Shown here in pieces: positions 19,170 to 61,360 of a stretch of 64,000 nucleotides of DNA. Where the stretch lies: NCBI GenBank assembly GCA_965552135.1, contig CBEVQY010000006.1, positions 8,713 to 72,712 of the forward strand, in the 5' to 3' direction. The notes under the pieces were generated by a model. That model saw nothing but the letters and a program-made list of their open reading frames with translations, did not search any database and was not told where the DNA came from. Source of the stretch: an uncultured bacterium (GTDB taxonomy: Bacteria; UBP14; UBA6098; B30-G16). Made by a program: the position numbers and the translations under genes. The stretch's first letter is position 1. Every line of letters starts with the position of its first letter.

Positions 19170-19171
19170 AA

Positions 19172-19573
19172 ATGGCGGAAAGAACTATGCAACTTATGGT
19201 TTGCATTTGGATTTTGTTTGTCATTTCATGTATCGGTTGTGCACATCTTATAAAAAATAGATTACCCCCACCGCATAAGGTTGATGGCGGGATACTTTTT
19301 CAATATGAAAACAAAGCCGCCCATTCCGTCAACCTTGCGGGAAACTTCAACGGCTGGTGCGGCACAAAGGAGTACGGTAGATTTGATCCGTCGATAGGTG
19401 TAATGCACGATGATGATGGGGATGGAATATGGGAAATTATTGTTCCATTGCCGCCCGGACGGTATCAATATAAATTCGTCATCGATAACGGAGCTAGTTG
19501 GGTCCTTGATCCCAATAATCCATTGACTGACTATGAAGATGGTATTGAAAACTCTCTCTTAATTGTGGAATAA
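19172..19573 (+). CDS. Small CBM48 (glycogen-binding domain) lipoprotein
   Basis: Lipobox (FVISC), then a single domain: VNLAGNFNGW...GIWEIIVPLPPGRYQYKFVIDNG.WVLDPNNP. About 134 aa. Confidence 0.6.
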   Translation: MAERTMQLMVCIWILFVISCIGCAHLIKNRLPPPHKVDGGILFQYENKAAHSVNLAGNFNGWCGTKEYGRFDPSIGVMHDDDGDGIWEIIVPLPPGRYQYKFVIDNGASWVLDPNNPLTDYEDGIENSLLIVE

Positions 19574-19590
19574 TAACATGAGGAGTCATT

Positions 19591-22167: not shown

Positions 22168-22186
22168 CTAACCTAAGGAGGTAACA

Positions 22187-24317: not shown

Positions 24318-25162
24318 GAGGTTCGGCCATGAAGAGGCGACGACGAATAGTAGATGCCCTTATTTATGTATTTCTAACCTGCTTTACGGCTGCAACCCTT
24401 TATCCCGTTGTGCGGGTTGTGTCGATATCGCTTCGACCTGGCGACAGACTTCTGTCCACATCGCTGCGGATAATACCCAAGGACGCGACCTTAGAGGCAT
24501 ATAGACGCCTTTTCACCGAAACACCCTTCTTGCGCTGGATGTTAAACTCCCTCATCGTCTCAGCTGCCGTAACTTTAACCGGTGTTGTGCTTGCTGCGAC
24601 CGCTGGTTATATTTTCTCTAAGCACGATTTTATTGGAAAAAAACTCAGCCTAACGGCAATTCTGACGACGCAGATGTTCCCCGCTACTATGTTGCTTCTG
24701 CCCATGTATATTATGTTGTCTAAGCTTGGGCTGATCAACAGTTACTTAGGATTGATTATAGTTTACACTGCCACAGCTCTGCCGTTTTGCATATGGCAGA
24801 TGAAGGGTTATTACGATACCATCCCAAACTCGCTCTACGAGGCTGCCATAATCGATGGGTGTTCCCACTTCCAGGCGTTTTATAAGGTTATTCTGCCCCT
24901 TGCTGCTCCAGCGCTCGTTATAACGGCTTTGTTCTCGTTTATGTCTGCGTGGTCGGAATATATTGTTGCTGCGCAGATACTACAGCAGCCCGATATGTTT
25001 ACTCTCCCCCTCGGGTTGAAGCAGTTTCAGTCCAACATGACGACGCAGTGGGGGCTTTATGCCGCTGGCGCCGTCGTTGTGTCGATTCCCGTCGTCGTGC
25101 TTTTTATAATCTTGAGCCGATGGCTCATAAGCGGCTTGACGCTTGGCAGCGTTAAGGAATAA
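24314..25162 (+). CDS. Carbohydrate ABC transporter permease (MalG-like)
   Basis: Permease with EAA motif ([25 protein letters not shown]). 4-bp overlap with the upstream permease. Confidence 0.8.
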
Positions 25163-25182
25163 AAAGCACAGCGAGGTGCAGT

Positions 25183-26238
25183 ATGGCGGAGGTCGTTCTG
25201 AAAAAGGTAAATAAAATATATCCCGGCGGCGTGCATGCCATAAAGGACGTTTCGCTCGAGGTAGAGGACGGTGAGTTTCTCGTTCTCGTCGGTCCTTCCG
25301 GGTGTGGAAAGTCGACGCTTCTTAGGCTCATCGCCGGTCTTGAGGAGGCTACGTCGGGCGAGATCATAATAGGCGGCAGGGTTGTAAACGACGTTGCGCC
25401 GAAGGACAGGGATATATCGATGGTCTTTCAGAACTACGCCCTCTACCCGCACATGACGGTCTACGAGAACATGGCGTTCGGACTTAAGATACGCAAGTTC
25501 CCGAAGGATGAGATCGACAGGCGTGTGAGGGAGGCGGCGGAGATGCTGGGTCTGACGGACCTTCTGGATCGCAAGCCCAAGGCTCTCTCCGGCGGGCAGA
25601 GGCAGCGTGTTGCGCTCGGCAGAGCCATCGTGCGAAAGCCCAAGGTGTTCTTGTTCGACGAGCCTTTGTCAAATCTCGACGCAAAGCTTAGGGTGCACAT
25701 GAGGACCGAGATAAGCAAGCTCCACCAGAGGCTTGGGACCACGATGATATACGTAACCCACGACCAGGTCGAGGCGATGACGATGGGCGACAGGATCGCC
25801 GTCCTCAAGGATGGCGTCATCCAGCAGCACGACACGCCGATGAAGCTTTACAACGATCCCGTGAACATGTTCGTTGCGGGTTTCATAGGCTCCCCCGCAA
25901 TGAACTTCATCGATGGGTCGGTTTCGGGCGAGGTCATAACGCTTGGTGAGGTCTTATTGCCGAAGCCCAGGCAGGTTGAGCCGCCCGGTGGGGAGCTTGT
26001 GGTCGGGATAAGACCGGAGCACTTCGTCGTCGATCCGGAGGCTCCGCATCTTTCCGCCGTCGTCGAGGTTGTGGAGCCTATGGGGAACGAGACCTTCATC
26101 TACTTCCAGCTCGGCGGGAGGCAGGTTGTGGCTCGCATACCCGCAAGCTACGCCGTCCGCGTGGGCGATAAAGTCCCCATCCGCATCGACACAGAGAGGA
26201 TAAAGTTCTTCGACCCCAAAACGGGTCTTAGGCTTTAG
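25183..26238 (+). CDS. Sugar ABC transporter ATP-binding protein (MalK/UgpC-like)
   Basis: Walker [11 protein letters not shown]-loop, [14 protein letters not shown] signature, Walker [11 protein letters not shown], and a C-terminal TOBE-like regulatory domain. GC-rich codon usage again. Confidence 0.9.
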
Positions 26239-27850: not shown

Positions 27851-29848
27851 TTACTTTATGTACAAAAGCTTCGTCGTCTTTCTTTCCCCTCCGAGGCTTA
27901 GGGCCGCGATGTAGATTCCCTGGGGCAGCTTGTGCGGTGGACTCCACGTGATCGTGCTTGTGCGGCTCTTGCGCTTAGCGGGCGCCTCGGCGCGGTAGAC
28001 AAGCCTTCCGGTGTGGTCGTATATGCTCAGGCAAGCCCCGGACGGCACGTTGAAACTGCACGATGTCTTGAAGGGGTTTGGGGACGCGGTCAGGGTGACT
28101 TTGGGGGCATCTTTCCGTCCGATTCCCGCGTTTGGCGCAAGATAGACGGTGCTTGTAAGCGGCACGCTGTCGCGCGCTCCGTAGGCGCTGAAGATGTACC
28201 AAAGCCTGATCACATAACTACCCGGCTCAAGCCCCAAGGTTGGGAAGCAACACAGCGTGTCGTTGTGGACGGGGTGCTCGATCGTCCCCGTGAGGGGGGT
28301 GAAGTGGCTTGTGTCGCCTTCGGGCGCGTACTCGATGCGGTAGCCTTCGTATTCAAAGGGGGAGAGGTCGGTTCGCACGTCTCTTGCCGTGCCGGTTATG
28401 TAGATCGAGTCGTCCACGCGGGTTGGAGCAGGCAGGTTCAGACTTGCCTCGAAGACCGCAGCAGAGTCGTAAACCAGGATCGGGTCGGGAACGACCGAGT
28501 TGTACAAAAGGGCGAGCGCTCTGTCGCAGGCTATGAGGTTGCCCCAAACGAAGTTCGTGTAGAAAAGGAGCGACACAGACCTCCCTCCAAGCAGCGCCTC
28601 GGAGAAGAGGGTTGACTGAAGCACGGTCATCACGGACGACCCGTTTGCGCCGATGTGACCTCCTGTGCCGTCGCAGGTGGCGTTAAGTATGGTTGCGCTG
28701 CTTGTGCTGTCTGCCAGACATTCGCCGAATATGCAGCTTTGGAGGACTATATCGGCGTTTTCGAAGGCGTAGAAGTTCCAGGTTCGCACCGATGAGTTGA
28801 CGAGGTGCAGCGACCGCGCCGGCAGTGGGGCGAAAAAGTCGTCGTAGTAGGCTCCGTTGACTATGCCGCGTATCGTGTCGCCCGAGGCGCTGAGGAATAT
28901 GTTGCCGCACCCGAATATGTCGGCGTCGTGCGCCTCCACCTCGGCTCCGTCCTCGACCATAAGCGCCCACAGCGGGTCGTTGAGGCTGTCGAGGCGCACA
29001 ACGTAGCCTATGCCCCCGCAGAGCGTGTCGGGAAAGACGAACGATTCCACAAATCCAGCTTCGCCGAATGGGTTGTGCAGTTCGCAGCGTGAGCCGTCCG
29101 CGAAGCCAAGCCAAATGAGGATGGAGTCGCTTTTTTTCGCCACAAGGCTGCAGGAGTCGCACAAAAGGACGAACTCTCCCGCCCTGTCGGCGCATCGGAC
29201 GTCCACTGAGGCGTTGTCGAACATTCCGAACGTGATGAACGCGCCGTCCATCTCGACGGTGTCCATCGAAAACTGCGCCCTCGCCGCCACAGCCGCCGTG
29301 ATCGGAAAGTTCGAGCTGTTGAGAACGCAGCCTCTGAAGGCAATGCAGGCACTGTCGACGGCAAGAAGCGTCCGCTGGTATATGTGCTCCTGGAATATGG
29401 TGACTTCGGCTTCTTCGAAGCTTGCGGTGGAGTTTCCCGTTGCGCACAGGTCGCCCAAAAGCCCGAAGTTGCAGCGGCGAACTATAAGCTGGGCGTTGGC
29501 CGTAAGGTATATGTCGCCCGTTATCGTCGTGTCGTGCTCGATGACGAGGACCGTGTCGGGGTTTATCTCCCCGAGGACGAGCCCATCTTCGTGTGTATGG
29601 ACGAGCTCTTTCGCCTTCTTTCCGCGGTAACCGAACCTTGCGAGGAGCGAGCCGCAGCCCGTGCTGGGATCGTCGGCTCTGGTTTGAACCTCAGCCGCAC
29701 TTGCCCGGGGATTTTCGCGCACAAACGGAACGCCACCCGGAAGCGGTAGAAGCTGCCCCCACGCAAAGCTGAAGGCAAGCGCGAAAAGCAAAGCCGTCGG
29801 GAAAACCCTTTTCCACGTTGCGTTTACCTTTCCCATTTCCTCTTCCAT
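27851..29848 (-). CDS. Secreted hypothetical protein with a T9SS type A C-terminal sorting domain
   Basis: Signal peptide. C-terminus ASPNPFKTSCSF...LSIYDHTGRLVYR...GIYIAAL...LLYIK. Confidence 0.55.
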   Translation of the reverse strand: MEEEMGKVNATWKRVFPTALLFALAFSFAWGQLLPLPGGVPFVRENPRASAAEVQTRADDPSTGCGSLLARFGYRGKKAKELVHTHEDGLVLGEINPDTVLVIEHDTTITGDIYLTANAQLIVRRCNFGLLGDLCATGNSTASFEEAEVTIFQEHIYQRTLLAVDSACIAFRGCVLNSSNFPITAAVAARAQFSMDTVEMDGAFITFGMFDNASVDVRCADRAGEFVLLCDSCSLVAKKSDSILIWLGFADGSRCELHNPFGEAGFVESFVFPDTLCGGIGYVVRLDSLNDPLWALMVEDGAEVEAHDADIFGCGNIFLSASGDTIRGIVNGAYYDDFFAPLPARSLHLVNSSVRTWNFYAFENADIVLQSCIFGECLADSTSSATILNATCDGTGGHIGANGSSVMTVLQSTLFSEALLGGRSVSLLFYTNFVWGNLIACDRALALLYNSVVPDPILVYDSAAVFEASLNLPAPTRVDDSIYITGTARDVRTDLSPFEYEGYRIEYAPEGDTSHFTPLTGTIEHPVHNDTLCCFPTLGLEPGSYVIRLWYIFSAYGARDSVPLTSTVYLAPNAGIGRKDAPKVTLTASPNPFKTSCSFNVPSGACLSIYDHTGRLVYRAEAPAKRKSRTSTITWSPPHKLPQGIYIAALSLGGERKTTKLLYIK

Positions 29849-32436: not shown

Positions 32437-32562
32437 AACGAAGTCAAGTTAAGCACGATCCCGTTGTGGCGCAACCGATAAGGGGCTCGGGCGCCCCAAA
32501 AAGGACTTGATTAGTTCCGAGGGCGGCGGTTATTTTTGTGGAAAGGCAAGGAGGTGCCGGGT

Positions 32563-34836
32563 ATGGTCAGGCGGTGTTTTTGGATTTGTCTATCGTTGGC
32601 TTTTGGTCTTTGTTTTGGCGCAAGCGGCGGTCCGGATGAGTTCGGGTACCGCTGGGTCGACTCCGATGAGCCCGGAGGACCCGCCTTCGAGTGGATCGAG
32701 ATAAGCTCCACGGGCGAGGTTCTGTCGCTCCACTGCGACGACTGCACCGACGAAATAACCCTGTCTGCGCCGTTCGAGTTCTATGGCGACGAATACACCC
32801 ACGCGAAGGTTTCGTCCAACGGATACATAAGCTTTGACCTTTCGATGACGTGGTATCCGATAACCGTGGGTCCGTTTCCTGATCCGTTCTCGCCCAACCT
32901 CGTCATTGCGCCCTACAATATGGACCTGAACCCGAGCTTAAGCCCGGGCGACATCTACTTCCAAGATTTCGGCGACAAGGCGGTGATAGAGTGGAAGGAG
33001 ATAAGGGAGTATGGGAGCTCGGCGACGGGGACGTCCACTTTCGAGGTCATTCTGCACTACGGCAGGAGGGAGATCATCTTTCAGTACCTCGAGACGCGCG
33101 TAGCCACCCACACCGCATACGTTGGGATAGAGGACGCCTCGGGCTCGGTCGGTCTCAACGTCTGGAGCTGGAGCAGCGATCCACCCGACAGCTACGCGAT
33201 CCGTTTGCGCGCAACGCCTGTGGCAACTCCGCCCTACGGCTGCAACTTCGAAATCGGGTGCGATGACTTTTCGTTCCCCGGAACGACCGGCTGGGAGTGG
33301 GGGATATTGCCCACAAGCTCGCCCGCCTTCCCGCCGTCGACGGGCGTGAAGTGCGTTGCCACCGTCCTTGCGGGCGACTACTCGAACAACGCCGACTGGG
33401 TGTTCGAAACGCCACACATCGACGCAACCACAATAACCTGGCCCATCGTGGACTTTTGGCACTACTACGACTGCGAGGAGGGTCACGACGGGGGCGTTGT
33501 GGAGGTTTCCACCGACGACGGCGCAAGCTGGGTTATAGTTGAGCCCGAGGACGGTTACCCGACGACGATGACCACAGGTCCTCTCGCCGGCATGAACGCG
33601 TTTTCGGGCTCAAGCGGCGGATGGCATAAGGTCTCCTTCGACCTCTCGGACTACGCGGGGCAGGAGTTTGTGATGCGGTTCCACTTCATCTCCGACGATG
33701 CAAACACAGGCCCCGGGTGGTACATAGACGACTTCGGCTATCATCAGGCCTACGGCTTCCTCCACGGCTACGTCGACCTTGGCTACTTCGAGCCCGATTC
33801 CGGCGCGCTCGTGGAGATCGTCGATCTGGGGCGGTCGACCCTCACCGACACAAGTGGCTACTTCGTCTTCGACTCCGTCGACGTCGGTGAGCACTATCTG
33901 CGCATCTCAAGACCCCACTTCGTAACGCGCGACTCCATATACTTCTCCATGGCGAGGTTCGACACGGTGTATTTGGAGGTTCTGCTTGCGCCCGAGCTTT
34001 ACTCCGAGGATTTCGAGGAGGGCAACGGCGATATGGCTGCTGATCCCGTCGACGGCTGGCAGTGGGGCAGACCCGACTCACTCTTCGAAACCGGTCCGGC
34101 GGTGGCTCACTCGGGAACGCTTTGTTGGGGGACCAACCTCGCGGGGAACTACTCCAACAACGCCGACTGGAAGCTTGTCGTTCAGGTTCCGCTTTATGAG
34201 GTTCGCTGGCCGCTACTCAGCTTCTACACGTGGTATAAATTCAACGGCGAGTGGGCGGGCATGCTTTACGACGGCGGCAACGTGAAGGTTTCCGTCGACA
34301 GCGGCGCGACCTGGCAGATAGTCTACCCTGTTGAGGGTTACGATGGCATCGTCGGCGCCCACAACGACTACCTCGGCAGCGAGCCCGCCTTTGGCGGAAT
34401 GGAGAACGGCAACTACTGGCACGAGGTTCACTTCCCGCTTTACGATTTTGCGGGGTCACCTGTGATCTGGGTGATGTTCGAGCTTGGCAGCGACGGCGCA
34501 GGCACCGCGGCGGGATGGTACATCGACGATGTGCGCCTCGCCGAGGATTCGACCTACGCGGGCGTTTTCGAAGGGACGGCGGTTCCCGCCAAGCCTTTGC
34601 TTGCGGTGGCGCCCAATCCGTTCAACGCAGCGTGTCGAATAAGCTACGTAGCGCGCGGCGGCGTCATCTCGATCCTTGATCTTACGGGGCGGTGTGTGGC
34701 TCGCTTCGAGCTGTCTGGGAAGTCAGGCAGGGGCTACGTCGTGTGGGATGCGGCGGGTTGCCCCAGCGGCGTATACACGGTTAAGCTTTCGGCGCAGGGC
34801 GCAGAGACGGCAAAGCGGGTCATCCTCGTTAGATGA
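32563..34836 (+). CDS. Secreted protein with two jelly-roll (MAM / choice-of-anchor-like) domains and a T9SS type A CTD
   Basis: Signal peptide. Two copies of ...VS.D.GA(S/T)W..V.P.(D/E)GY...W....F.L.D(Y/F)AG...GWYIDD. C-terminus APNPFNAACRISY...ILDLTGRCV...GVYTVKL. Confidence 0.55.
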   Translation: MVRRCFWICLSLAFGLCFGASGGPDEFGYRWVDSDEPGGPAFEWIEISSTGEVLSLHCDDCTDEITLSAPFEFYGDEYTHAKVSSNGYISFDLSMTWYPITVGPFPDPFSPNLVIAPYNMDLNPSLSPGDIYFQDFGDKAVIEWKEIREYGSSATGTSTFEVILHYGRREIIFQYLETRVATHTAYVGIEDASGSVGLNVWSWSSDPPDSYAIRLRATPVATPPYGCNFEIGCDDFSFPGTTGWEWGILPTSSPAFPPSTGVKCVATVLAGDYSNNADWVFETPHIDATTITWPIVDFWHYYDCEEGHDGGVVEVSTDDGASWVIVEPEDGYPTTMTTGPLAGMNAFSGSSGGWHKVSFDLSDYAGQEFVMRFHFISDDANTGPGWYIDDFGYHQAYGFLHGYVDLGYFEPDSGALVEIVDLGRSTLTDTSGYFVFDSVDVGEHYLRISRPHFVTRDSIYFSMARFDTVYLEVLLAPELYSEDFEEGNGDMAADPVDGWQWGRPDSLFETGPAVAHSGTLCWGTNLAGNYSNNADWKLVVQVPLYEVRWPLLSFYTWYKFNGEWAGMLYDGGNVKVSVDSGATWQIVYPVEGYDGIVGAHNDYLGSEPAFGGMENGNYWHEVHFPLYDFAGSPVIWVMFELGSDGAGTAAGWYIDDVRLAEDSTYAGVFEGTAVPAKPLLAVAPNPFNAACRISYVARGGVISILDLTGRCVARFELSGKSGRGYVVWDAAGCPSGVYTVKLSAQGAETAKRVILVR

Positions 34837-35395: not shown

Positions 35396-37027
35396 ATGAG
35401 GCACGTACGCGTTTGGGTGGTCTTTCTTCTCTGTGGGTGCGTTTTTGGGCAGGTGCCGCGGACTCTGTCATTTCAAGGGAAGTTGGTGGGGGTGTCCTCA
35501 CCGGTAGATATGTATTTTTACATCTACGACACAGAGACCGGTGGCACGCCATTGTGGACAGAGTATCATCCGGATGTGGTTTTGAGCGGCGATGGGTTGT
35601 TTAATGTAATTCTCGGCGAGACGAACCCGATAGATCTTGATTTTTCTGCTCAATATTGGCTTGAAGTCAGGGTTGACATGACTGTTCTTCCGAACCGTTT
35701 CAAGCTTACCGCTGGCGCTTACTCCATTCACGCAATTCTTTCTGACACGGCAAAATATACCGTTTATGCTGATACTGCCGTGTATGCTTTATCCTGTGCT
35801 GATGGCGGAAGCGCACAGGATACATTTGTCGCATACTGGGATAGCCTAAGGAATGTTCCGGCCGGTTTCGCGGATGGAACTGACGACATTGGCAACGACG
35901 TTCTCGATGATCTTTCGGATAATTCGATAAACGACCTCTCCGATGTAAACACAAGCGGTGTTAGCATAGGTCAGGTCTTGAAGTGGGATGGAACAAACTG
36001 GATACCGGCGAACGATAGTGTAGGCAGTGGGGGAAGTAGCATAAGCATTTCCCAAGGAACTGGGATTTCTTGTTCGCCAAACCCTATAACCTCAACTGGT
36101 GTGGTTTCCTTTGATCAGAGTTGGGGGGATTCTCGGTATGTAAATGAAGGGCAGTCCGCCGGCGGTGATTTGACGGGAAGTTATCCTAACCCGACAGTAT
36201 CCAAGATTCAAGGTAGGCCGGTTTCAAGTAATGCACCGTCGGTTGGTCAGGTTCTTAAATGGGATGGTTCACAATGGGCTCCCGGGACGGATGAAACAGG
36301 AGGTAGTGGCAATTGGTATTTGTCAGGCGATAAGCTTCGCCCTAACAGTTCGAGTTGGAGAGTTGTCGTTGGAAACGATTTTGACTTTGGGGAAATAATG
36401 CTTATGACCCGAAATGAAAATAGTGGAGGAGCGGCAATAGGGGGTTATGCATACGGCAGTTCTGTTGTAGGTGTTTTTGGGTATTGCGATAATGAATTTG
36501 CGGGGGTTCAAGGCAATGCAGGTGGGGGCAATTACGGCGTTTATGGATTTAACGGTGATTATGGTGTGTATGCTTCAGGTGATATGGGGTGTTCTGGCAG
36601 TAAATCAGCTGTTGTTAGAATTGGTGACGATGCTTATGAATTTTACACGGTGGAGTCGCCCGAGATATGGTTTGAAGATTTTGGTGAGGCAAAGCTTGAA
36701 AATGGTAGGGCTCATATTGAATTAGAGGAACTTTTCTTGCAGGCTTGCACAATTGATGAGGATCATCCTATGCAAGTTTTTATAACGCCCTATAGTCCTC
36801 TAGGGGAGTATTACATTGTAAGGCAAGCAACGGGTTTTGATGTAATACAAGTGGCTGGAGGAGAAAAAGATGCATCTTTCGGCTATCGCGTAATTGCAAA
36901 AAGAAAAGGCTATGAGAATATTCGAAATAGACGGGTGACGGAGACAGTGAAAGCTGATCCTGTTTTATATCCAGAACTTAGAAATGGTATGCCTAAATGG
37001 ATGAATCCCAGGTTTTCGGGGAGGTGA
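35396..37027 (+). CDS. Secreted tail-fibre-like repeat protein (hypothetical)
   Basis: Signal peptide. N-terminal motif LSFQGKL...YFYIYDTETGGTPLWTE...GLFNVILGE, repeated (S/A)(I/V)GQVLKWDG..W.P motifs, a Gly/Tyr-rich segment and a conserved C-terminal domain. AT-richer codon usage. Confidence 0.55.
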   Translation: MRHVRVWVVFLLCGCVFGQVPRTLSFQGKLVGVSSPVDMYFYIYDTETGGTPLWTEYHPDVVLSGDGLFNVILGETNPIDLDFSAQYWLEVRVDMTVLPNRFKLTAGAYSIHAILSDTAKYTVYADTAVYALSCADGGSAQDTFVAYWDSLRNVPAGFADGTDDIGNDVLDDLSDNSINDLSDVNTSGVSIGQVLKWDGTNWIPANDSVGSGGSSISISQGTGISCSPNPITSTGVVSFDQSWGDSRYVNEGQSAGGDLTGSYPNPTVSKIQGRPVSSNAPSVGQVLKWDGSQWAPGTDETGGSGNWYLSGDKLRPNSSSWRVVVGNDFDFGEIMLMTRNENSGGAAIGGYAYGSSVVGVFGYCDNEFAGVQGNAGGGNYGVYGFNGDYGVYASGDMGCSGSKSAVVRIGDDAYEFYTVESPEIWFEDFGEAKLENGRAHIELEELFLQACTIDEDHPMQVFITPYSPLGEYYIVRQATGFDVIQVAGGEKDASFGYRVIAKRKGYENIRNRRVTETVKADPVLYPELRNGMPKWMNPRFSGR

Positions 37028-37029
37028 AG

Positions 37030-37530
37030 ATGAATCTCACGGTGATGATAGGAATCTTGCTGTTGATTATTTCCGCTGGGGCTCAATCTCTCCCCTGGTG
37101 GGTTTTCGACAACGGTGGCGGGATGCAAATTCTCGGCAGCGATGATACAGCCTATGTCTCTATTGGGCAGACTGCTATCGGTGAGAAAAGCACCGAAACA
37201 CTTTACCTCGGCGCAGGTTATCTTTACATCGAAGCTGCGTCTATGCGGGCAAAAGAAAATTCTGTCAGCCCTCAGTTACCGTTCATCCGTATAACCCCTA
37301 ATCCGTTTAACACGTCGTGCTTAATTGTAGTGGGGTCCGGCACCAACCGCACCGTGCAGGTCGAAGTGTACGATGTGCTTGGCAAAAGTGTTGCATCCTG
37401 GCAGCTATTTCCTCGTGCCGGAGTCCATACGATAAAATGGAATCCTAGTAACCTGCCCTCCGGAATCTACGTGGTTAAGATAAGCACTGATAACGGGTCG
37501 GTCACAAAAACGGCTGCTCTTGTAAGATAA
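37030..37530 (+). CDS. Mini secreted protein consisting of a signal peptide, a short domain and a T9SS type A CTD
   Basis: Start chosen at the ATG (37030) immediately after the upstream stop, with the RBS GAGGTGAAG. C-terminus ITPNPFNTSCLIVV...VEVYDVLGKSV...GIYVVKIS...AALVR. Confidence 0.5.
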   Translation: MNLTVMIGILLLIISAGAQSLPWWVFDNGGGMQILGSDDTAYVSIGQTAIGEKSTETLYLGAGYLYIEAASMRAKENSVSPQLPFIRITPNPFNTSCLIVVGSGTNRTVQVEVYDVLGKSVASWQLFPRAGVHTIKWNPSNLPSGIYVVKISTDNGSVTKTAALVR

Positions 37531-37579: not shown

Positions 37580-39136
37580 TTACCTCACACACAAGACCCT
37601 CGTCGTTGCGGCAAAGGGGTCTGCCCTGAGTATGTAGAGACCTGACCGCAGCGTGCTCAGTTCGACTTCGACGCTAGTTGCGCCGGCGGGAACGGAGATC
37701 CTTGTCACGAGCTCTCCCTTGCTGTTGAACACTGAAAGTGCCCGCGCTCCGGGAGGAAGTTTAACCACACATCCCGAGTTGAACGGGTTTGGCGATGCCG
37801 AAAGCATCGTTTTGGGCTTATGTGTGCGCGTCTCGGCGACGGCCCAGATGCTGTCTGTGGGGGCGATTATAAGGGGTTCCGGCGTGAGCACCACGCTATC
37901 GCAGGAGACAATGGATGTGTCGCCAAGCCCGTTTTCTGTGAGGAGCCAGCCCGCCGCGTGCGGGCAGAAGTCCACCGTTGTTTCGCCCGTCCAGCGCCAC
38001 GCAACGAAAACGGTATCGCGCGGCACCATAGCCTCGTCGCGCCTCACGAACCTAAAGCACACGCATCCCGCGCCGATGTCCACGTTCGAGTCGAACTCCG
38101 TTCCCCAGAGGAAGCGGCGCAGGGTGGGGTAGGTGTACGGATATGGTCCTCCCGGGGTGAAGTTGAAGGATGATGCCGATGGGTTTGCGCTGCGCCAGGC
38201 GTAGTACTCTTGTGCTACATCAGCTGCCGAGGCGAAGCGGGCTATGGTATCGCCGAAGGGGGTGGTGTGTCCGACGAAGTTTTCCGAGAGCCACTGCAGG
38301 ATTTCGGTGTGGTCGTCGTGGCGGTATTGTATGGCTCTTGGGTGCGCAAGCCAGCTTATCACCCACACCTTCTGCGGCGTGCCGTGGCGTATCTGCGCAA
38401 GCCACTCGATGTAAAGCATAAGGAAGCGTCTCTTCCAGAACGGTGGATCCGTCGGGCACCACGGATGCGCCTCGGGCAAAAGCGGGATCTGGACGTAGGG
38501 TTGCGATAGGTTCTCGCGGAGGAGGTCGTCGAGGTCGAGGGGGTCGAGGCGAACCTGCCACGGGTTCCAGGGGTAGTGGTAAAGAACCGACTCCGCCTCT
38601 ATCTCCTGATTGAGCTCCATTATGGCTATCTGGTAGAAGCCGAATGAGTCCATAATCTCCGGCAGGAACTCGCGGAAGAACGGGGCGATGGTTCTGTTGT
38701 TTTCGGCACCAATGGCCGAGTCGACGCAGACCTTATTCATTTGTATGACCTGCCAGACGGTCTCGGGGTCGGCGGTGTAGATGTACTCCACCGGCGCAAA
38801 AAGCCTCCAGTCGTGGCGGGCGTAGCGCCAGTAGTTGGGGTGCACGTGTGTGCCTATGTCTCCGCCGAGGGCGAGGATGCTCACAAGCTCGCCCTGGTCG
38901 GATGAGTCGACGACGTATTCCATAAACTCGCCCGTGCTCTGCACCGAAAGCGGAGCGCCGTAAGAGGCGGCAACGTCCCTGAGCCAGCAAAGCTCCCTTA
39001 TGCGCGTTGTGTAAGAGACTGTGTCCCCAAGCTCCGTCTCGAACGGCTCGATGTGGACGTTGACTATGACGTTTATAGGCGGCTGATGCGCAAGGACAGC
39101 CCCAAAAAGCGACGCCAAAAGCGCTGCAACAACCAT
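37580..39136 (-). CDS. Secreted hypothetical protein with a T9SS type A CTD
   Basis: Signal peptide. C-terminus ASPNPFNSGCVVKL...LSVFNSKGELV...GLYILRA...VLCVR. Central region of unknown function. Confidence 0.55.
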   Translation of the reverse strand: MVVAALLASLFGAVLAHQPPINVIVNVHIEPFETELGDTVSYTTRIRELCWLRDVAASYGAPLSVQSTGEFMEYVVDSSDQGELVSILALGGDIGTHVHPNYWRYARHDWRLFAPVEYIYTADPETVWQVIQMNKVCVDSAIGAENNRTIAPFFREFLPEIMDSFGFYQIAIMELNQEIEAESVLYHYPWNPWQVRLDPLDLDDLLRENLSQPYVQIPLLPEAHPWCPTDPPFWKRRFLMLYIEWLAQIRHGTPQKVWVISWLAHPRAIQYRHDDHTEILQWLSENFVGHTTPFGDTIARFASAADVAQEYYAWRSANPSASSFNFTPGGPYPYTYPTLRRFLWGTEFDSNVDIGAGCVCFRFVRRDEAMVPRDTVFVAWRWTGETTVDFCPHAAGWLLTENGLGDTSIVSCDSVVLTPEPLIIAPTDSIWAVAETRTHKPKTMLSASPNPFNSGCVVKLPPGARALSVFNSKGELVTRISVPAGATSVEVELSTLRSGLYILRADPFAATTRVLCVR

Positions 39137-45859: not shown

Positions 45860-46216
45860 ATGCGCAACATTCCGAAGGTTCCGGCGCACCGCAGGAGGCG
45901 CAAGTACGTCAAGGCTGCGAAGGGGTACTTCGGCGGCAGACACAGGCTCTATCGCACCGCCCGCGAGGTTGTCGAGCGCGCGTGGCAGTTCCAGTACATC
46001 CACCGCAAACTGCGCAAACGCGACTTCCGCAGGCTTTGGATCGTGCGCATAAACGCCGCCGCAAGGCTCAACGGAACGACCTACTCCAAGCTCATGGGCG
46101 CGCTTAAGCAAAAGAACATCCGCATCGACCGCAAGATGCTCGCCATGCTTGCGGTGGAGGACCCCAAGGCGTTCTCGCGGGTGGTTCAGGTTGCGATGGG
46201 GACTGAGGCATCTTAA
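45860..46216 (+). CDS. rplT: 50S ribosomal protein L20
   Basis: ...[39 protein letters not shown]..., 118 aa. Confidence 0.9.
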
Positions 46217-46225
46217 CCCCGCGCT

Positions 46226-47242
46226 ATGGACCTCGCCGAGATCAAAAGCCGCCTTACCGAGATTCTCCGTGAGGCGGAGGAAAGGCGCAAGCTCGCTGCC
46301 GAGGAGGAGCTCCCCAAGCTTAAGGCTAAGTTTTTGGGGAGGAAGGGTGAGCTTTCCTCGCTGATGAGGCTTTTGGGCACGCTTCCGCCGCAGCAGCGCC
46401 CCGAGGCGGGAAGACTCGCCAACGAGGTTAAGCGGAAGCTTGAGGCTCTCTTCGCCGACGTCGGCGTCAGACCAAAGCCAAAAGCCCCCTCCTTCGATCC
46501 AACGCTCCCCGGCAGAAAGCCCGTGGTGGGCGGGCTGCACCCCATAAGGATGGTTTTGCGCGAGATTGTCGACATCTTCTACGGGATGGGTTTCTCCGTC
46601 GTGGGCGGTCCGGAGATCGAGACGGAGTACTACAACTTCGATGCCCTAAACACGCCCGAGGACCATCCCGCAAGGGACATACAGGATACCTTTTACCTTC
46701 CCCGGCGCGGCTGGCTTTTGCGGACGCAGACGTCGCCTGTGCAGATAAGGGTGATGGAGAGCCGCAAGCCGCCCATAAGGATCATAGCGCCCGGCAGGTG
46801 CTTCCGCAGGGATGCCATCGACGCAACCCACTACTACACCTTCCATCAGGTCGAGGGGCTTTACGTCGACAGGGACGTTACCTTTGCCGACCTTAAGGGC
46901 GTTTTGACCGCGTTTGCCAAAAGGCTTTTGGGCGAAAGCGCGCAGGTGCGCTTCAGACCCCACTTCTTCCCCTTCACCGAGCCATCGGTGGAGTACGACT
47001 TTTCGTGTCCCGTCTGCGGGGGCGCGGGCTGCAGACTGTGCAAAAACACCGGCTGGATCGAGATCTCGGGCGCGGGAATGGTGGCACCGGAGGTCTTCAG
47101 AGCCGTCGGATACGACCCCGAGGAAGTTCAGGGCTACGCCTTCGGCATGGGCGTGGAGAGGATCGCTATGGTCAAGTTCGGGATAGACGACATAAGGCTT
47201 TTTTACGAAAACGACCTCGCCTTCCTTGAGCAGTTTCGATAG
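46226..47242 (+). CDS. pheS: Phenylalanine--tRNA ligase alpha subunit
   Basis: Class II aaRS motifs (FRPHFFPFTEPS, GAGMVAPEVF, GMGVERIAM). pheT does not follow. Confidence 0.92.
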   Translation: MDLAEIKSRLTEILREAEERRKLAAEEELPKLKAKFLGRKGELSSLMRLLGTLPPQQRPEAGRLANEVKRKLEALFADVGVRPKPKAPSFDPTLPGRKPVVGGLHPIRMVLREIVDIFYGMGFSVVGGPEIETEYYNFDALNTPEDHPARDIQDTFYLPRRGWLLRTQTSPVQIRVMESRKPPIRIIAPGRCFRRDAIDATHYYTFHQVEGLYVDRDVTFADLKGVLTAFAKRLLGESAQVRFRPHFFPFTEPSVEYDFSCPVCGGAGCRLCKNTGWIEISGAGMVAPEVFRAVGYDPEEVQGYAFGMGVERIAMVKFGIDDIRLFYENDLAFLEQFR

Positions 47243-47260
47243 TCTGCTTTTGCGACGTTC

Positions 47261-49498
47261 TCAGCGCACGAGGGCAAGCTTTTTGTGCACGACCTTGCCG
47301 TCTGTGGTGTGGACCACCGCGATGTAGACCCCCGAGGTGATGCCCTCCTCGGGCTGCCAGATCCATCTCCCTACGCACTCCTGAGGGACGTTGACCAGCC
47401 TGCCCAGAACATCGCATATCTCGACGGTGGAACCTCGGGGCGCAGCGATAACGCACGACGAGTTGAACGGATTCGGGTATACGGAGATTTCCATTGCCTT
47501 CGGCTTGTTTTGGCTGTGTTCAGCGATTATTGACGAGCCGTATTCGTCTGCGCCGATGTCCCAGCCGGCGCCTTGGGGTCGATCGCCGCCTTCGAAATCG
47601 TAACCCGGTGCGTATATAACTGTGCCCCAGATTGGGACATAAATGGATTCCGCCCCCGCATCTATGCAGGGGGAGGTTTCGGAGAGGTGGAAAAGTGAAT
47701 CAGCAAAAAGCGGGTCGGCGTTTATGTTCCCGGGACCCCAGATGATTTCGGATCCAGTCTCGATATAGCATTCGCTGGAATCTATGTCCGTGTATGCAAC
47801 GAAGAGAGTGCAGGGATAGGGTGTGCCACCGGATTCATCGTATCTTACATAAACCTCATTTCCCGAACTGGCGGTATTTTGCCATAGGATGGTGTTGAAG
47901 ATTATTAGCTTAGAGTCTTCCCAGCAGTAAATCCCGCCGCCCTTGTTGCCTGCCGAGTTTCCGCATATTGTGTTGTTCATTATTGTTGGGTTGGACTCCT
48001 CCCAGCAGGAAATCCCGCCGCCATGGAGGTCTGCCGAGTTTCCGCATATTGTGTTATTCGCTATCGTCGCATTGCCGCAGGAAATCCCGCCGCCGTAATT
48101 TGCCGTGTTTCCGCTTATTGTGTTATTCGCTATCGTCGCGCTGTCGCAGTAAATCCCGCCGCCGGTCCAATCTGCTAAGTTTCCGTTTATTATATTGCTC
48201 ACTATTGTGGGGTTGTCCTCATCACGCCGGCAGTAAATCCCGCCGCCGTATTCTGCCGAGTTTCCGCTTATTGTGTTGTTCTCTATTGTCGGGCTGGAAT
48301 TATTATAGCAGTAAATTCCGCCGCCTTTGCTTGCCGAGTTTTCGCTTATTGTGTTGCCTGTTATTGTCGGGCTGGAGCTCCAGCAGTGAATCCCGCCGCC
48401 ATATTCTGCCGTGTTTTCATTTATTGTGTTATCTTCTATTGTTGGGGTGGAGCAGTAACAGTAAATCCCGCCGCCGTAGTTTTCTGCTGTGTTTCTGCTT
48501 ATTGTGTTGCTTTCTATCGTCGGATTGGACTCATCGCGGCAGTAAATTCCGCCGCCATGGAGGCCTGCCGAGTTTACGCTCATCGTGTTGCCTGTTATCG
48601 TCGGGCTGGAATTATTGCAGGAAATCCCGCCGCCACGGAATGCCGAGTTTCCGCTTATTATGTTGTTCGCTATTATTGGGTTGGATTCATAATAGCAGTA
48701 AATCCCGCCTCCGAGACTGTCCGCCCAGTTCCCGCTTATTGTGTTGTTTTCTACTGTCGGGCTGGAGTGGTCGCAGTAAATCCCGCCGCCATGGAGGCCT
48801 GCCGAGTTTACGCTCATCATGTTGCCTGTTATCGTCGGGCTGGAATTGTCGCAGGAAATCCCGCCGCCGTAATCTGCCGTGTTTCCGCTTATCATGTTGT
48901 TTGCTATTGTCGGGTTGGAAGAATATAAGCAGCCAATCCCACCGCCGTGGTCTGCTGAGTTTTTGCTTATTGTGTTGTTTTCTATCATCGGGCTGGAGTA
49001 TTCACAGTAAATCCCACCGCCGCAGTTATCAGGATGATCGCCAAACGCATTCCCATATTCAATTCTGCAGTACATCAGCGTGCAGCCCTCCGCCGCGTGA
49101 TAAAACCTTATGCCGTGATGACCGCCAGTGGAATCCGTCAAAACTGTATCCTGAGCCGTGAAGACTATGCTATCGGTCGGGGTGCCTATAGCCTTCAGCA
49201 CAGCATTACTGTCCACGCAGAACTTGTAGTGGCCGGTGAAGATTATCGAGCATCCAGGCTCTATCACGAGCATGCTGTCGGTGGGGATGTGGATTTCGCA
49301 ATCTACGTAGTACGGTGAGCACTCTACTGTCCACACGCCAAAAACGTCGCCACAGACGTGGGTGCCGTCTGTGGCAGTTGTTGAGGTCGTTTTGCGCGCT
49401 TTGGCATCGGCATCGGCGGTGCGCTCAAAAGAACCCGAAAAAGACTGGGGAAAACAGAAAGAGAAAATGACGGAGAAAACCAGAATCACTCTCCTCAT
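47261..49498 (-). CDS. Secreted right-handed parallel beta-helix repeat protein with T9SS type A CTD (paralog A)
   Basis: Start trimmed to MRRVILVFSVIFSFCF (ATG verified at 49496-49498). More than 15 tandem approximately 22-aa units NNTISGNSA..GGGIYC. C-terminus VYPNPFNSSCVIAAP...ICDVLGRLV...GVYIAVV...KLALVR. Confidence 0.7.
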   Translation of the reverse strand: MRRVILVFSVIFSFCFPQSFSGSFERTADADAKARKTTSTTATDGTHVCGDVFGVWTVECSPYYVDCEIHIPTDSMLVIEPGCSIIFTGHYKFCVDSNAVLKAIGTPTDSIVFTAQDTVLTDSTGGHHGIRFYHAAEGCTLMYCRIEYGNAFGDHPDNCGGGIYCEYSSPMIENNTISKNSADHGGGIGCLYSSNPTIANNMISGNTADYGGGISCDNSSPTITGNMMSVNSAGLHGGGIYCDHSSPTVENNTISGNWADSLGGGIYCYYESNPIIANNIISGNSAFRGGGISCNNSSPTITGNTMSVNSAGLHGGGIYCRDESNPTIESNTISRNTAENYGGGIYCYCSTPTIEDNTINENTAEYGGGIHCWSSSPTITGNTISENSASKGGGIYCYNNSSPTIENNTISGNSAEYGGGIYCRRDEDNPTIVSNIINGNLADWTGGGIYCDSATIANNTISGNTANYGGGISCGNATIANNTICGNSADLHGGGISCWEESNPTIMNNTICGNSAGNKGGGIYCWEDSKLIIFNTILWQNTASSGNEVYVRYDESGGTPYPCTLFVAYTDIDSSECYIETGSEIIWGPGNINADPLFADSLFHLSETSPCIDAGAESIYVPIWGTVIYAPGYDFEGGDRPQGAGWDIGADEYGSSIIAEHSQNKPKAMEISVYPNPFNSSCVIAAPRGSTVEICDVLGRLVNVPQECVGRWIWQPEEGITSGVYIAVVHTTDGKVVHKKLALVR
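47441..47800. repeat. Near-identical approximately 360-bp block shared with 49783-50142 (C-proximal coding region of the two beta-helix paralogs)
   Basis: Identical nucleotide strings read in both copies (e.g. gcgcagcgataacgcacgacgagttgaacggattcgggtatacggagatttccattgcc). Boundaries approximate. Confidence 0.7.
48890..49498. repeat. Near-identical approximately 600-bp block shared with 50830-51444 (5' coding region of the two beta-helix paralogs)
   Basis: Identical strings (e.g. ttgctattgtcgggttggaagaatataagcagccaatcccaccgccgtggtctgctgagt) and N-terminal approximately 200 aa identical except for a few substitutions. Boundaries approximate. Confidence 0.7.
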
Positions 49499-49581
49499 AA
49501 CTCCCTCCTTTGGTAAGCTCTTTGTAAAAATTAGCCGAGGTTCGAAGATGCGCAAGAGGGAAGTGATCTTTTGTGGGGATG

Positions 49582-51444
49582 TCATTTCAGATAGACGATT
49601 CGTTTTGCGCAGATGGCCGTAGTTGCTCGCTGCGGCGTTGTCGCGCAAACGAGATATATCCCCGCCGGAATGGATTTGTCGGGCTGCCAGATGTATCGCC
49701 TCATCCCGCGGTCTTTCGCGCTGGAGGGGAATTTTTTCACCACCTTTCCCAGCAGGTTGCAGATTTCTATGGTTGCTTCTGCAGGCGCAGCGATAACGCA
49801 CGACGAGTTGAACGGATTCGGGTATACGGAGATTTCCATTGCCTTCGGCTTGTTTTGGCTGTGTTCAGCGATTATTGACGAGCCGTATTCGTCTGCGCCG
49901 ATGTCCCAGCCGGCGCCTTGGGGTCGATCGCCGCCTTCGAAATCGTAACCCGGTGCGTATATAACTGTGCCCCAGATTGGGACATAAATGGATTCCGCCC
50001 CCGCATCTATGCAGGGGGAGGTTTCGGAGAGGTGGAAAAGTGAATCAGCAAAAAGCGGGTCGGCGTTTATGTTCCCGGGACCCCAGATGATTTCGGATCC
50101 GGTCTCGATATAGCATTCGCTGGAGTCTATGTCCGTGTATGCCACAAAGAGGATGCAGGGACGATCTCCAGAGTGTCTAACAAAAATCTCACTTCCTAAG
50201 CTGGCAGTATTTTGCCATAGGATGGAATTGAAGACCGTTAGGTTAGATTCGCGGCAATAGATGCCACCGCCACCATCTGCCGAGTTTTCGCTTATTGTGT
50301 TGTTCACTAACACCGGGCTAGAATACCATTCACAGCAAATTCCGCCGCCAATCCACGCCGAATTTCTGTTTATCGCATTGTTGATTACTGTTGGATTGGA
50401 GGCTAAGCAATAAATTCCACTACCGCCGATTGCCGAGTTTCTGCTTATTATGTTGCTTATTATCGTGGGGTTGGAGTTATGGCGGCAGAAAATTCCGCCC
50501 CCGTTAACCGCTGAGTTTTCAGTTATTATATTATTTGATATTATCGGCCTGGAATTATCACACCAAACTCCGCCGCCGCGCTGTGCTGAATTTCTACTTA
50601 TTGTGTTGTTTGCTAGCGTTGGGTTGGAGATCAAACAACAAATCCCGCCACAATCATCCGCCGCTGTGTTTTCGTCGATTTGGTTGTTTGTTATTGTTAG
50701 ATTGGAGTACCATTCGCAGTAAATTGCTCCCCCGCGGTGATTCGCTGAGTTTCTAAATATGGTGTTGTTCACTACTTCCGGGCTGGAACGGTTGCAGTAG
50801 ATTCCGCCGCCGCTGGATCTTGCTAAATCTCCACTTATCGTGTTGTTTGCTATTGTCGGGTTGGAAGAATATAAGCAGCCAATCCCACCGCCGTGGTCTG
50901 CTGAGTTTTTGCTTATTGTGTTGTTTTCTATCATCGGGCTGGAGTATTCACAGTAAATCCCACCGCCGCAGTTATCAGGATGATCGCCAAACGCATTCCC
51001 ATATTCAATTCTGCAGTACATCAGCGTGCAGCCCTCCGCCGCGTGATAAAACCTTATGCCGTGATGACCGCCAGTGGAATCCGTCAAAACTGTATCCTGA
51101 GCCGTGAAGACTATGCTATCGGTCGGGGTGCCTATAGCCTTCAGCACAGCGTTGCTGTCCACGCAGAACTTGTAGTGTCCGGTAAAGATTATCGAGCAGC
51201 CCGGCTCTATCAGGAGCATGCTGTCTGTGGGGATGTGGATTTCGCAGTCCACGTAGTAGGGTGAGCACTCTGCTGTCCATATGCCGGAAACGTTGCCGCA
51301 GACGTGGGTGCCGTCTGTGGCGGTTGTTGGGGTCGTTTTGCGCGCTTTGGCGCCGGCATCGGCGGTGCGCTCAAAAGAACTCGAAAAAGACCGGGGAAAA
51401 CAGAAAGAGAAAATGACGGAGAAAACCAGAATCACTCTCCTCAT
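49582..51444 (-). CDS. Secreted right-handed parallel beta-helix repeat protein with T9SS type A CTD (paralog B)
   Basis: Start MRRVILVFSVIFSFCF (ATG verified at 51442-51444). The N-terminal approximately 200 aa and an approximately 125-aa C-proximal block are near-identical to paralog A. Repeat core and the last approximately 65 aa differ. Confidence 0.7.
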   Translation of the reverse strand: MRRVILVFSVIFSFCFPRSFSSSFERTADAGAKARKTTPTTATDGTHVCGNVSGIWTAECSPYYVDCEIHIPTDSMLLIEPGCSIIFTGHYKFCVDSNAVLKAIGTPTDSIVFTAQDTVLTDSTGGHHGIRFYHAAEGCTLMYCRIEYGNAFGDHPDNCGGGIYCEYSSPMIENNTISKNSADHGGGIGCLYSSNPTIANNTISGDLARSSGGGIYCNRSSPEVVNNTIFRNSANHRGGAIYCEWYSNLTITNNQIDENTAADDCGGICCLISNPTLANNTISRNSAQRGGGVWCDNSRPIISNNIITENSAVNGGGIFCRHNSNPTIISNIISRNSAIGGSGIYCLASNPTVINNAINRNSAWIGGGICCEWYSSPVLVNNTISENSADGGGGIYCRESNLTVFNSILWQNTASLGSEIFVRHSGDRPCILFVAYTDIDSSECYIETGSEIIWGPGNINADPLFADSLFHLSETSPCIDAGAESIYVPIWGTVIYAPGYDFEGGDRPQGAGWDIGADEYGSSIIAEHSQNKPKAMEISVYPNPFNSSCVIAAPAEATIEICNLLGKVVKKFPSSAKDRGMRRYIWQPDKSIPAGIYLVCATTPQRATTAICAKRIVYLK

Positions 51445-52053
51445 AACTTCCTCTTTCAGATGAGCCCTCGACAGAAAAATCAAATGAGAAGCCCAAAGCG
51501 GTGCAAGAGCGAAAAGCAAGCGCGTTGCATTTGGTCCTTCGCGATGTGAGGGGAGCGTTGTTTTATATTTGCGCTTCAAGTCGAGCGGGCTGCGGTGCAC
51601 GAAGAGATCTTTTGGCGTCTTAGCGGCATCCGCGTGCCGTGCTGGCGTCGAGTTTGCTTTCGCTTCGGTTAGGCGCTTTCGCGGCGTTCGCCCGCTTTCC
51701 CTTGACGCAGCTTTAGGGGAAGGTTATGTTCGTTTTGCTTCGGCACAGACGGCTATGCAGCGGTGAACTTGTGATCCGCGGCGCCGCACTCGAGCGGGGA
51801 ATCGGGATCAGGAAGGCGAGGGTCGCCCTCTTCGCCTCGGGGACACAGGGGTCTACAGCGCGGGCTGCGGATGCTCGCAGGGGGAGGGCGATTTCTGCAG
51901 TTCGGCGTCGCGAATGCGTCCCTGGCGCTGAAACCGCCTGAGGGCGTCTCGTTTACCACAGGGCGTCGTGCTCGGACATCAAAGGCGCAGAGGGGGGACG
52001 CGGTTGTTTTGCCTTCTAAGCGCCTTCGAGTTCTAAAAAGGAGGCAGGTTGGT

Positions 52054-52596
52054 ATGGACGTGATCTGGTCGAGGCTGCCACACCTGGAGCAGATCTCCGA
52101 CGATAGGCTCAGGTCCGGCGTTAAGGCGTGCTTCGAGGCGGCGATAGAGCGGGGCGGATGGACGGAGGAGGAGGCTTTACGGATACCGTTCACACTCCTT
52201 ATCCCCAACTGCCCCGTCTCGCTTGTCGATCACACGGCTGCGGTGACGGAGATAGCCCTAAGAAGCGCCGAGTCCGTCGCGAAGATGTATCCGCGCTTCT
52301 CATACGACAGGGATGCGCTTATCGCCGGTGCGATACTGCACGACGTTGGCAAGTTCCTCGAATACACGCGCACCGACGAGGGCTTCGTCAAAAGCGACTT
52401 CGGCAAGCTTCTGCGCCACCCGTTCAGCGGGGCGGCGCTTGCCTATGAGTTCGGGCTACCGCCGAAGGTCGTTCACATAATCGCCGTCCACGCGAAGGAG
52501 GGCGACTCGGGCTACAGGTGCCCCGAAGCCGTCATCGTAAACAAAGCCGATTTCATAACATTCGAGAGCCTTAAGGCTGCGCTCGGTATAAAGTGA
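52054..52596 (+). CDS. HD-domain phosphohydrolase
   Basis: HD motif ...AGAILHDVGKFLEY... The track ORF is N-terminally over-extended; ATG at 52054 is preceded by the RBS AAAAGGAGG. Confidence 0.65.
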   Translation: MDVIWSRLPHLEQISDDRLRSGVKACFEAAIERGGWTEEEALRIPFTLLIPNCPVSLVDHTAAVTEIALRSAESVAKMYPRFSYDRDALIAGAILHDVGKFLEYTRTDEGFVKSDFGKLLRHPFSGAALAYEFGLPPKVVHIIAVHAKEGDSGYRCPEAVIVNKADFITFESLKAALGIK

Positions 52597-52608
52597 TATC
52601 TTAACTAA

Positions 52609-53049
52609 ATGAGCTATCATATTGAGCGACAAGTTGTTATTACAAACAGCTCCGACGAAACCGAGGCTGAGGGTGAGCGCCTTGGGAGGACGCTTTCTCC
52701 GGGGGATGTGGTGCTCCTCTTCGGGGAACTTGGCGCGGGGAAGACGACATTCGCTAAGGGCGTCTGTCGCGCACTCGGGGTGAAGTGGGCTCGAAGCCCT
52801 TCGTTTGTCATCGTGAACGTCTACTGCGGAGATGTGCCCGTATACCACATAGACCTCTACAGAACCAAGGAGCTTGACCAGGTCACCGCAGCCGAGATAG
52901 CCGAGCACATCTGGGACAGCGATGCCGTAAAGATTGTGGAGTGGGCGGAGAGACTTCCGGAGGAGATCGTTCCGCAGAGTTTCGTCGCTGTGAGGTTCGA
53001 AAGGGTTGGGGAGCAGGTGCGGCGAATAACGATCGAAAGGGCGAAATGA
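52609..53049 (+). CDS. tsaE: tRNA threonylcarbamoyladenosine biosynthesis protein TsaE
   Basis: Walker A LFGELGAGKTTFAKG, YjeE family, 146 aa. Confidence 0.85.
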   Translation: MSYHIERQVVITNSSDETEAEGERLGRTLSPGDVVLLFGELGAGKTTFAKGVCRALGVKWARSPSFVIVNVYCGDVPVYHIDLYRTKELDQVTAAEIAEHIWDSDAVKIVEWAERLPEEIVPQSFVAVRFERVGEQVRRITIERAK

Positions 53050-61286: not shown

Positions 61287-61360
61287 CGGGGCGTGGCGCA
61301 GTCTGGAAGCGCACCTGGTTTGGGTCCAGGGGGTCGGAGGTTCAAATCCTCTCGCCCCGA
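61287..61360 (+). tRNA. tRNA-Pro (anticodon UGG)
   Basis: Hand-folded cloverleaf: acceptor CGGGGCG/CGCCCCG (C1:G72, typical of bacterial tRNA-Pro), D-arm GCGC-AGTCTGGAA-GCGC, anticodon stem CCTGG/CCAGG with loop TTTGGGT, T-arm GGAGG-TTCAAAT-CCTCT. 74 nt. CCA not encoded. Confidence 0.8.

Follow-up and report, generated by a model that had tools for sequence, protein, structure and literature searches.

Probable segmental gene conversion between two tandem genes for predicted beta-helix cargo of type IX secretion in an uncultured bacterium

We analysed two adjacent genes, here called A and B, in a 64,000-nucleotide stretch (the window) of contig CBEVQY010000006.1, part of the assembly of an uncultured bacterium (GCA_965552135.1), and asked how far their sequences are shared and where they part. 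The genes lie head to tail in the same orientation, both are intact, and their products begin with the same residues, MRRVILVF. Each start has a Shine-Dalgarno-like sequence of its own ahead of it. In the case of A, AAGGAGG is located 6 nt upstream of the ATG, within the spacer that separates the two genes (Table 1). The upstream regions of A and B are homologous only from 12 nt before the ATG. No terminator-like site was found in the spacer, and scans for sigma-70 promoters and terminators returned background levels only. The gene B stop overlaps, in an ATGA at 49582-49586, an in-frame upstream ATG of the gene A open reading frame (ORF), and use of that ATG would add 29 residues before the signal peptide. 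Because AAGGAGG is a strong signal and the extension has no counterpart in B, we prefer the MRRVIL start of A.

The two proteins have the same architecture, consisting, in order, of a signal peptide, an N-terminal cap, beta-helix rungs, a choice-of-anchor-Q region and a type A C-terminal domain (CTD) of a type IX secretion system (T9SS). The predicted Sec signal peptide of both, MRRVILVFSVIFSFCFP, has an n-region of positive charge ahead of a hydrophobic helix. Both proteins scored above the cutoffs of Pfam Beta_helix PF13229 (142.8 bits for A and 93.6 for B; cutoff 25.9), Chlam_PMP PF02415 (75.2 and 37.9; cutoff 20.6), TIGR03804 (74.3 and 33.7; cutoff 19.45), TIGR01376 (60.1 and 27.6; cutoff 15), the NCBIfam choice-of-anchor Q family NF041518 (29.5 and 29.9; cutoff 25) and the T9SS type A sorting domain TIGR04183 (28.5 and 26.3; cutoff 23). 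Pfam PF18962 stayed under its gathering score of 27 in both (23.5 bits in A, 23.6 in B). An AlphaFold2 model of B, with a mean predicted local distance difference test score (pLDDT) of 88.4, showed a signal helix at residues 2-15, a disordered linker at 16-43, a continuous beta-helix with three-stranded rungs that starts at residue 46 and ends near residue 500, a second linker at 520-534 and, as the CTD, a beta-sandwich at 539-618 (pLDDT about 80-95) with strands at 539-541, 549-554, 558-562, 568-572, 581-586, 595-605 and 608-618. For this CTD, Foldseek gave partial immunoglobulin (Ig)-like or beta-sandwich matches. Together, the profile matches and the model bear out an earlier description made from the letters of the DNA (the sequence-only reading), which had taken A and B for tandem paralogs coding for beta-helix T9SS cargo; the gene products are predicted to be Sec-exported, T9SS-sorted right-handed beta-helix proteins. 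In their above-cutoff scores for PF13229, TIGR03804 and NF041518 and in the continuous modelled beta-helix, they resemble choice-of-anchor Q/PbH1 proteins.

A sequence search of the PDB found no solved homolog, no catalytic signature was found, and the fold search returned, with low TM-scores, only generic beta-helices (Rhombotarget A, 9cdv, and the AlgE4 A-module) and Ig-like folds. Since the PDB search was empty and the fold matches were generic and low in TM-score, no function could be transferred to A or B; a role as surface antigen or adhesin is plausible. Between the signal peptide and the cap, at aa 21-45, both proteins carry a low-complexity insert of about 23 aa, SFERTADA.AKARKTT.TTATDG, which is absent from 10 of the 10 other aligned homologs and is predicted to be disordered (pLDDT <50).

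Comparison of the two genes revealed a 5' shared block of 616 bp with 24 mismatches, all of which fell within the first 294 nt of the coding sequence. The remainder of the block is an exact tract of 310 bp. The sequence-only reading had described a block of about 600 bp as identical or nearly so; the shared length was thus confirmed, but strict identity extends over only about half of it, the rest being about 92% identical. Over the first 294 nt, the proportion of synonymous differences (pS) was 0.216 and that of nonsynonymous differences (pN) was 0.042 (pN/pS 0.19), a contrast indicating that this segment has been under purifying selection in both copies. A second block of 359 bp is shared near the 3' end, with two mismatches, both located in the 42 bp beyond an exact tract of 317 bp, as expected from the near-identical C-proximal block of about 360 bp that had been noted before. 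The part of the protein encoded by this block runs from the choice-of-anchor-Q region through the linker to the first CTD strand, and the exact tract of the block stops inside the CTD after ...NSSCVIAAP. At a pS of 0.216, about 15 synonymous differences would be expected in each exact tract; none was observed (probability of none about 4e-7 and 1e-7 for the two tracts). No further copies of the 5' or 3' block were present in the 64-kb window.

Between and beyond these blocks, the genes differ strongly. The beta-helix, which is right-handed and Pmp-like, has 15 rungs in A and 10 in B, A is longer by 125 residues, and the two cores, of unequal length, are about 65-80% identical at the nucleotide level where they can be aligned. 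The earlier claim that the cores differ in unit number therefore holds; the unit size, put at about 66 bp, was measured as 69-84 bp (23-28 aa), with Tandem Repeats Finder periods of 69 and 78. The rung consensus, GGGIxC..xxSxPTIxxNxIxxNxAxx, contains GGxI and xxN motifs of the Pmp-like kind; it is invariant at scaffold positions and varies at the turns. A matrix of all rungs gave positional counterparts only for A1 and B1 (identical), A2 and B2 (86%) and A15 and B10 (78%). The core units of A are 68-83% identical to one another, except for A3 and A6, which are 96% identical and 234 bp apart, and those of B are 54-72% identical. The longest exact intragenic repeat was 36 nt in A, and none of at least 15 nt was found in B. 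Since the A rungs are closer to each other than the B rungs are, and A3 and A6 are 96% identical, the shaft of A appears to have been rebuilt by internal unit duplication. The last 58 aa of A and 66 aa of B, which form the CTD tails, are 27% identical, in agreement with the earlier remark that the final 60 or so residues differ. Between A and B, identity is 95-99% in the N-cap and C-block, against only 54-86% when these parts are compared with other homologs (P0003, P0005 and P0006); in contrast, the tail of either gene has nearer matches among proteins of other organisms than in its neighbour, which makes the locus a mosaic of older paralogs.

On the strand opposite the gene A repeat core lies a 397-aa ORF, whose translation is periodic, of low complexity and rich in Cys, Arg, Ser and Leu, and gene B has a shorter antisense counterpart. 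We rejected the 397-aa ORF as a gene; the periodic codon pattern of the repeats most likely gave rise to it.

Table 1. Positions of gene A, gene B, their segments and other features in the window
Feature	Coordinates	Strand	Remarks
Gene A	47261-49498	minus	complete ORF, 745 aa; stop included in coordinates
Gene B	49582-51444	minus	complete ORF, 620 aa
A-B spacer	49499-49581	minus	83 bp, unique, from B stop to A start
5' shared block, A	48895-49510		616 bp
5' shared block, B	50841-51456		616 bp
Older 5' segment, A	49205-49510	minus	ribosome-binding site, signal peptide, 23-aa insert, start of cap
Older 5' segment, B	51151-51456	minus	homolog of 49205-49510 in A; 24 mismatches
Low-complexity insert, A	49360-49435
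Low-complexity insert, B	51306-51381
Exact 310-bp tract, A	48895-49204	minus	coding-sequence nt 295-604, aa 99-201: end of cap and rungs 1-2
Exact 310-bp tract, B	50841-51150	minus	identical to the A copy
Divergent core, A	47798-48894	minus	rungs 3-15 and helix C-cap
Divergent core, B	50143-50840	minus	rungs 3-10 and helix C-cap
3' shared block, A	47439-47797	minus	359 bp; exact 317 bp at 47439-47755
3' shared block, B	49784-50142	minus	exact 317 bp at 49784-50100
CTD tail, A	47261-47438	minus	58 aa and stop; closest P0003, 39%
CTD tail, B	49582-49783	minus	66 aa and stop; closest P0005/P0006, 48-49%
ORF antisense to A core	47968-49161	plus	397 aa; rejected as a gene
HD-domain gene	51871-52596	plus	divergent neighbour upstream of B
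Further ORF with T9SS CTD	9976-11364	plus
Further ORF with T9SS CTD	27851-29848	minus
Further ORF with T9SS CTD	32536-34836	plus
Further ORF with T9SS CTD	36997-37530	plus
Further ORF with T9SS CTD	37580-39136	minus
Glycogen/starch-related cluster	16857-26238
Protein with CBM48-like segment	16857-19169		part of the cluster
GH57 with CBM48 and CBM20	19591-22167		part of the cluster
Sugar ABC transporter	22187-26238		part of the cluster
tRNA	61287-61360		only Rfam match

Within this one gene pair, exact tracts, sequence diverged by about 8% and saturated sequence alternate sharply, which calls for recombination or gene conversion and not for uniform divergence. We therefore consider it likely that A and B are tandem paralogs that have been patched by segmental interlocus gene conversion, in a course of ordinary concerted evolution that involves no programmed device. 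The simplest account of a mosaic of at least three ages is that older paralogs were repeatedly patched in this way. The pair would not be a fresh duplication, as the CTD tails and most of the rungs appear older than the split from the homologs of other organisms. Short stretches would instead have been copied from gene to gene by RecA-type interlocus conversion, leaving at least two age layers: an older one, represented by the 5' 294 nt, about 8% diverged and under purifying selection, and a very recent one, represented by the 310- and 317-bp tracts with zero differences. The sequence-only reading had offered recent duplication or ongoing gene conversion; the exact tracts and the pS contrast favor conversion, and the old tails speak against a fresh duplication.

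Conversion tracts would reach only as far as homology does, ending on meeting the core or the CTD tail, so that the N-cap and the C-terminal stalk with the first CTD strand would evolve in concert. Divergence would be left to the length of the helix (10 or 15 rungs), to the turn residues exposed to solvent and to the remainder of the CTD, and the core of gene A may additionally have been rebuilt through duplication of its own units. A cell would then be predicted to display two surface proteins with like ends and different shafts: the ends related to secretion and scaffold would be homogenised while the exposed shaft and CTD tail diverge. The 310- and 317-bp direct repeats could also occasionally drive unequal crossing-over, by which the array would be amplified, shortened by a deletion or fused into an A/B hybrid; we infer that this could act as a low-frequency diversification on an evolutionary timescale and not as a programmed switch.

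Next, we examined relatives of the gene pair. Gene A ends 18 bp from a convergent pheS gene, and when pheS served as the anchor, in a set with one genome for each species, the best match reached only 74% identity (L001, 'MAG: bacterium'). None of 80 pheS loci carried a gene A homolog within 10 kb of pheS, indicating that synteny is not conserved. Exact look-ups of A, B, P0001 and pheS in a contig index returned no match. When the N-terminal domain was used to scan metagenomes, the relatives retrieved were at most 77% identical, and no contig of the same species appeared. The family is widespread in uncultured bacteria; in its protein alignment the ends are conserved and the rungs vary in number. 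At least eight unrelated metagenome contigs hold tandem arrays of it, and the mosaic is the same there. In L100 (1650-9407), two copies share an exact 2951-bp tract between flanks of 80-92% identity, and in L102 an exact tract of 2158 bp is shared by two copies. L097 (1-6340), whose own copies show about 90% identity, overlaps L100 at 99.98%, which gives an array of at least three copies in a related organism (the overlapping contigs are Ga0207996_1003051 and Ga0208648_1003800). L092 and L099 come from one metagenome, but their flanks are not syntenic; identity between them reaches up to 100% at the N-terminal end and 85-98% at the C-terminal end, against about 72% in the core. Because the arrays of relatives show the same mosaic, homogenised ends with divergent shafts seem to be a habit of the family and not a peculiarity of the window.

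Several points weigh against segmental conversion as the history of A and B. The evidence comes from a single assembly of one uncultured genome (an 80,312-bp contig), and the 310- and 317-bp exact tracts exceed the usual short-read k-mer sizes, so that the pairing of cores with genes and the strict 100% identity depend on assembly and polishing, both of which are prone to error in exact repeats of more than 300 bp. The direction of conversion and the number of events are not derivable from two sequences without an orthologous outgroup locus, and the donor could be a third paralog elsewhere in the genome. In addition, gene A was found in no form in a collection of 5.8 billion proteins that contains B (P0001, identical) and pheS (P0121) from the same contig; gene-calling, pseudogene flagging and assembly version are candidate causes of this absence.

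Some of these points bear on an artefactual origin, in which both genes exist but repeat collapse, a mis-threaded repeat graph or consensus polishing with multi-mapped reads created the exact tracts and possibly also paired cores with the wrong ends. The contig is a metagenome contig from an uncultured organism, the exact tracts are similar in size, longer than typical k-mers and near short-read insert sizes, and the longer exact tandem tracts of related metagenome contigs are of a kind that short-read assemblers rarely resolve; the missing gene A fits as well. However, the A-B junction is unique, comprising the private tail of B, the 83-bp spacer and the 5' 294 nt of A with its 24 private differences, and stacked alleles alone cannot make a tandem. 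Since, in addition, the frames of A and B are intact across every tract boundary, we consider the two-gene structure real. The 5' tract ends within a homologous region, as heteroduplexes do, and not at a repeat edge, and the contrast with the adjoining pS of 0.22 would persist even if polishing had erased a few differences. An artefact of this kind thus seems improbable for the exact tracts.

A programmed or high-rate variation, in which the exact tracts serve as handles for core swaps or changes in repeat number and generate antigenic or adhesive heterogeneity in the population, had been raised by the sequence-only reading in the form of a variation cassette with slipped-strand changes. Conserved handles around variable cores in two adjacent surface-protein genes would suit it, as would the recurrence of this layout in relatives, the 96%-identical unit pair in A and the precedents of conversion-driven surface-protein variation (PMC5266723). 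At the locus itself we found nothing that would identify such a device. Cassette-type variation of the pilE/pilS, vlsE or tprK kind works from silent donors, but both copies here have a ribosome-binding site, a start, a signal peptide and a CTD, and, being complete, neither A nor B is a silent or truncated donor cassette. Slippage fares no better: with units 54-83% alike, bar the single 96% pair, and no exact match longer than 36 nt, the repeats are poor substrates, and high-frequency slippage is unlikely. No homopolymer of at least 7 and no simple sequence repeat (SSR) of at least 5 units occurred in 47000-52000, which leaves SSR phase variation without a substrate there. An invertible promoter found no support either, as inverted repeats of at least 40 nt were absent from 46000-53000 and only weak inverted arms (10-19 nt, 79-90% complementary) were seen upstream of B.

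The ORFs scanned cover part of those in the window, and among them no recombinase, invertase, integrase or reverse transcriptase was found; the surrounding ORFs in this set were housekeeping genes or other T9SS cargo. A diversity-generating retroelement is likewise not indicated, given that no reverse transcriptase appeared in this set and that most of the 24 substitutions, which are not adenine-specific, are transitions of the T>C and G>A types. Only two copies exist in the 64 kb, and the protein database held no other near-identical paralog. We thus regard programmed variation at this locus as quite improbable, and we give equally slight credence to the idea that the exact tracts are kept as handles by which shafts or rung numbers are exchanged among tandem members of the family and possibly with others so far unseen. 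If it were true, a T9SS-bearing uncultured lineage would vary its surface at the population level through beta-helix length and turn residues, and its signature would be the identical ends and divergent core that recur in L092/L099, L100 and L102. A recent duplication of the whole gene followed by very fast divergence of core and tail, without gene conversion, is highly improbable: relatives do hold young whole-unit tandem duplicates of 97-99% identity and repeat regions can turn over fast, but the non-repetitive 5' 294 nt have a pS of 0.22 next to 310 nt with none, the CTD tails, which are also non-repetitive, are each closer to other organisms' proteins than to one another, and silent-site divergence this uneven within one gene pair rules out a single duplication date.

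Segmental conversion between A and B has parallels in known surface-protein families. In Helicobacter pylori, the paralogs babA/babB and sabA/sabB are homogenised at the 5' and 3' ends and diverge in between, are expressed at full length and exchange RecA-dependent tracts of a few hundred base pairs; their loci are dispersed, and some have phase-variable dinucleotide repeats. A and B differ from them in being adjacent and in lacking SSRs. Like the chlamydial Pmp proteins, A and B have beta-helical GGxI/xxN repeats and belong to a multigene family with tandem clusters and a variable repeat number. They have no match to an autotransporter beta-barrel and carry a T9SS CTD in place of a type V secretion module, and because the beta-barrel is lacking they are not Pmp autotransporters. 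Among documented T9SS cargo, the nearest counterpart is provided by the blocks of Porphyromonas gingivalis rgpA, kgp and hagA, in which identical repeats are common to the cargo genes and are attributed to recombination or gene conversion (PMC5266723). As in A and B, a Sec signal peptide is combined with a T9SS CTD, and nucleotide-identical blocks shared among the cargo genes complicate assembly (PMC5266723). Unlike the haemagglutinin/adhesin modules of P. gingivalis, the parts shared by A and B are the N-cap and the C-stalk of a beta-helix, and unlike rgpA, kgp and hagA, A and B are adjacent and have no protease domain.

The A-B locus therefore represents a clean, quantifiable example of what is probably segmental concerted evolution in T9SS cargo outside the cultured Bacteroidota. 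It opens no new mechanism and touches no long-standing question, working as other surface-protein families under segmental conversion do. It also flags a class of loci, tandem surface-protein arrays with exact repeats of 300 bp-3 kb, in which metagenome assemblies and protein catalogues are unreliable.

T9SS cargo is described as extremely numerous in the FCB (Fibrobacteres-Chlorobi-Bacteroidetes) superphylum (PMC11205867). Among the same scanned ORFs, none encoded a core T9SS component (PorK/L/M/N, SprA or PorU/V). At least five further ORFs of the window, set among housekeeping genes, end in a T9SS type A CTD, which makes the region unusually rich in cargo; one of the products is InhA/MAM-like, another is a choice-of-anchor-X protein and a third is small, with 177 aa. 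Because these ORFs carry the same CTD as A and B, a working T9SS can be argued for indirectly.

The divergent neighbour upstream of B is an HD-domain gene with a weak Cas3-HD-like match in PADLOC (E 1.6e-4, 19.9 bits), which probably reflects generic HD similarity; PADLOC returned no match for A or B. The Rfam search of the window yielded a single tRNA and nothing else (Table 1). Elsewhere in the window, a glycogen/starch-related cluster encodes a sugar ABC transporter, a GH57 enzyme bearing CBM48 and CBM20 modules and a further protein in which one segment is CBM48-like.

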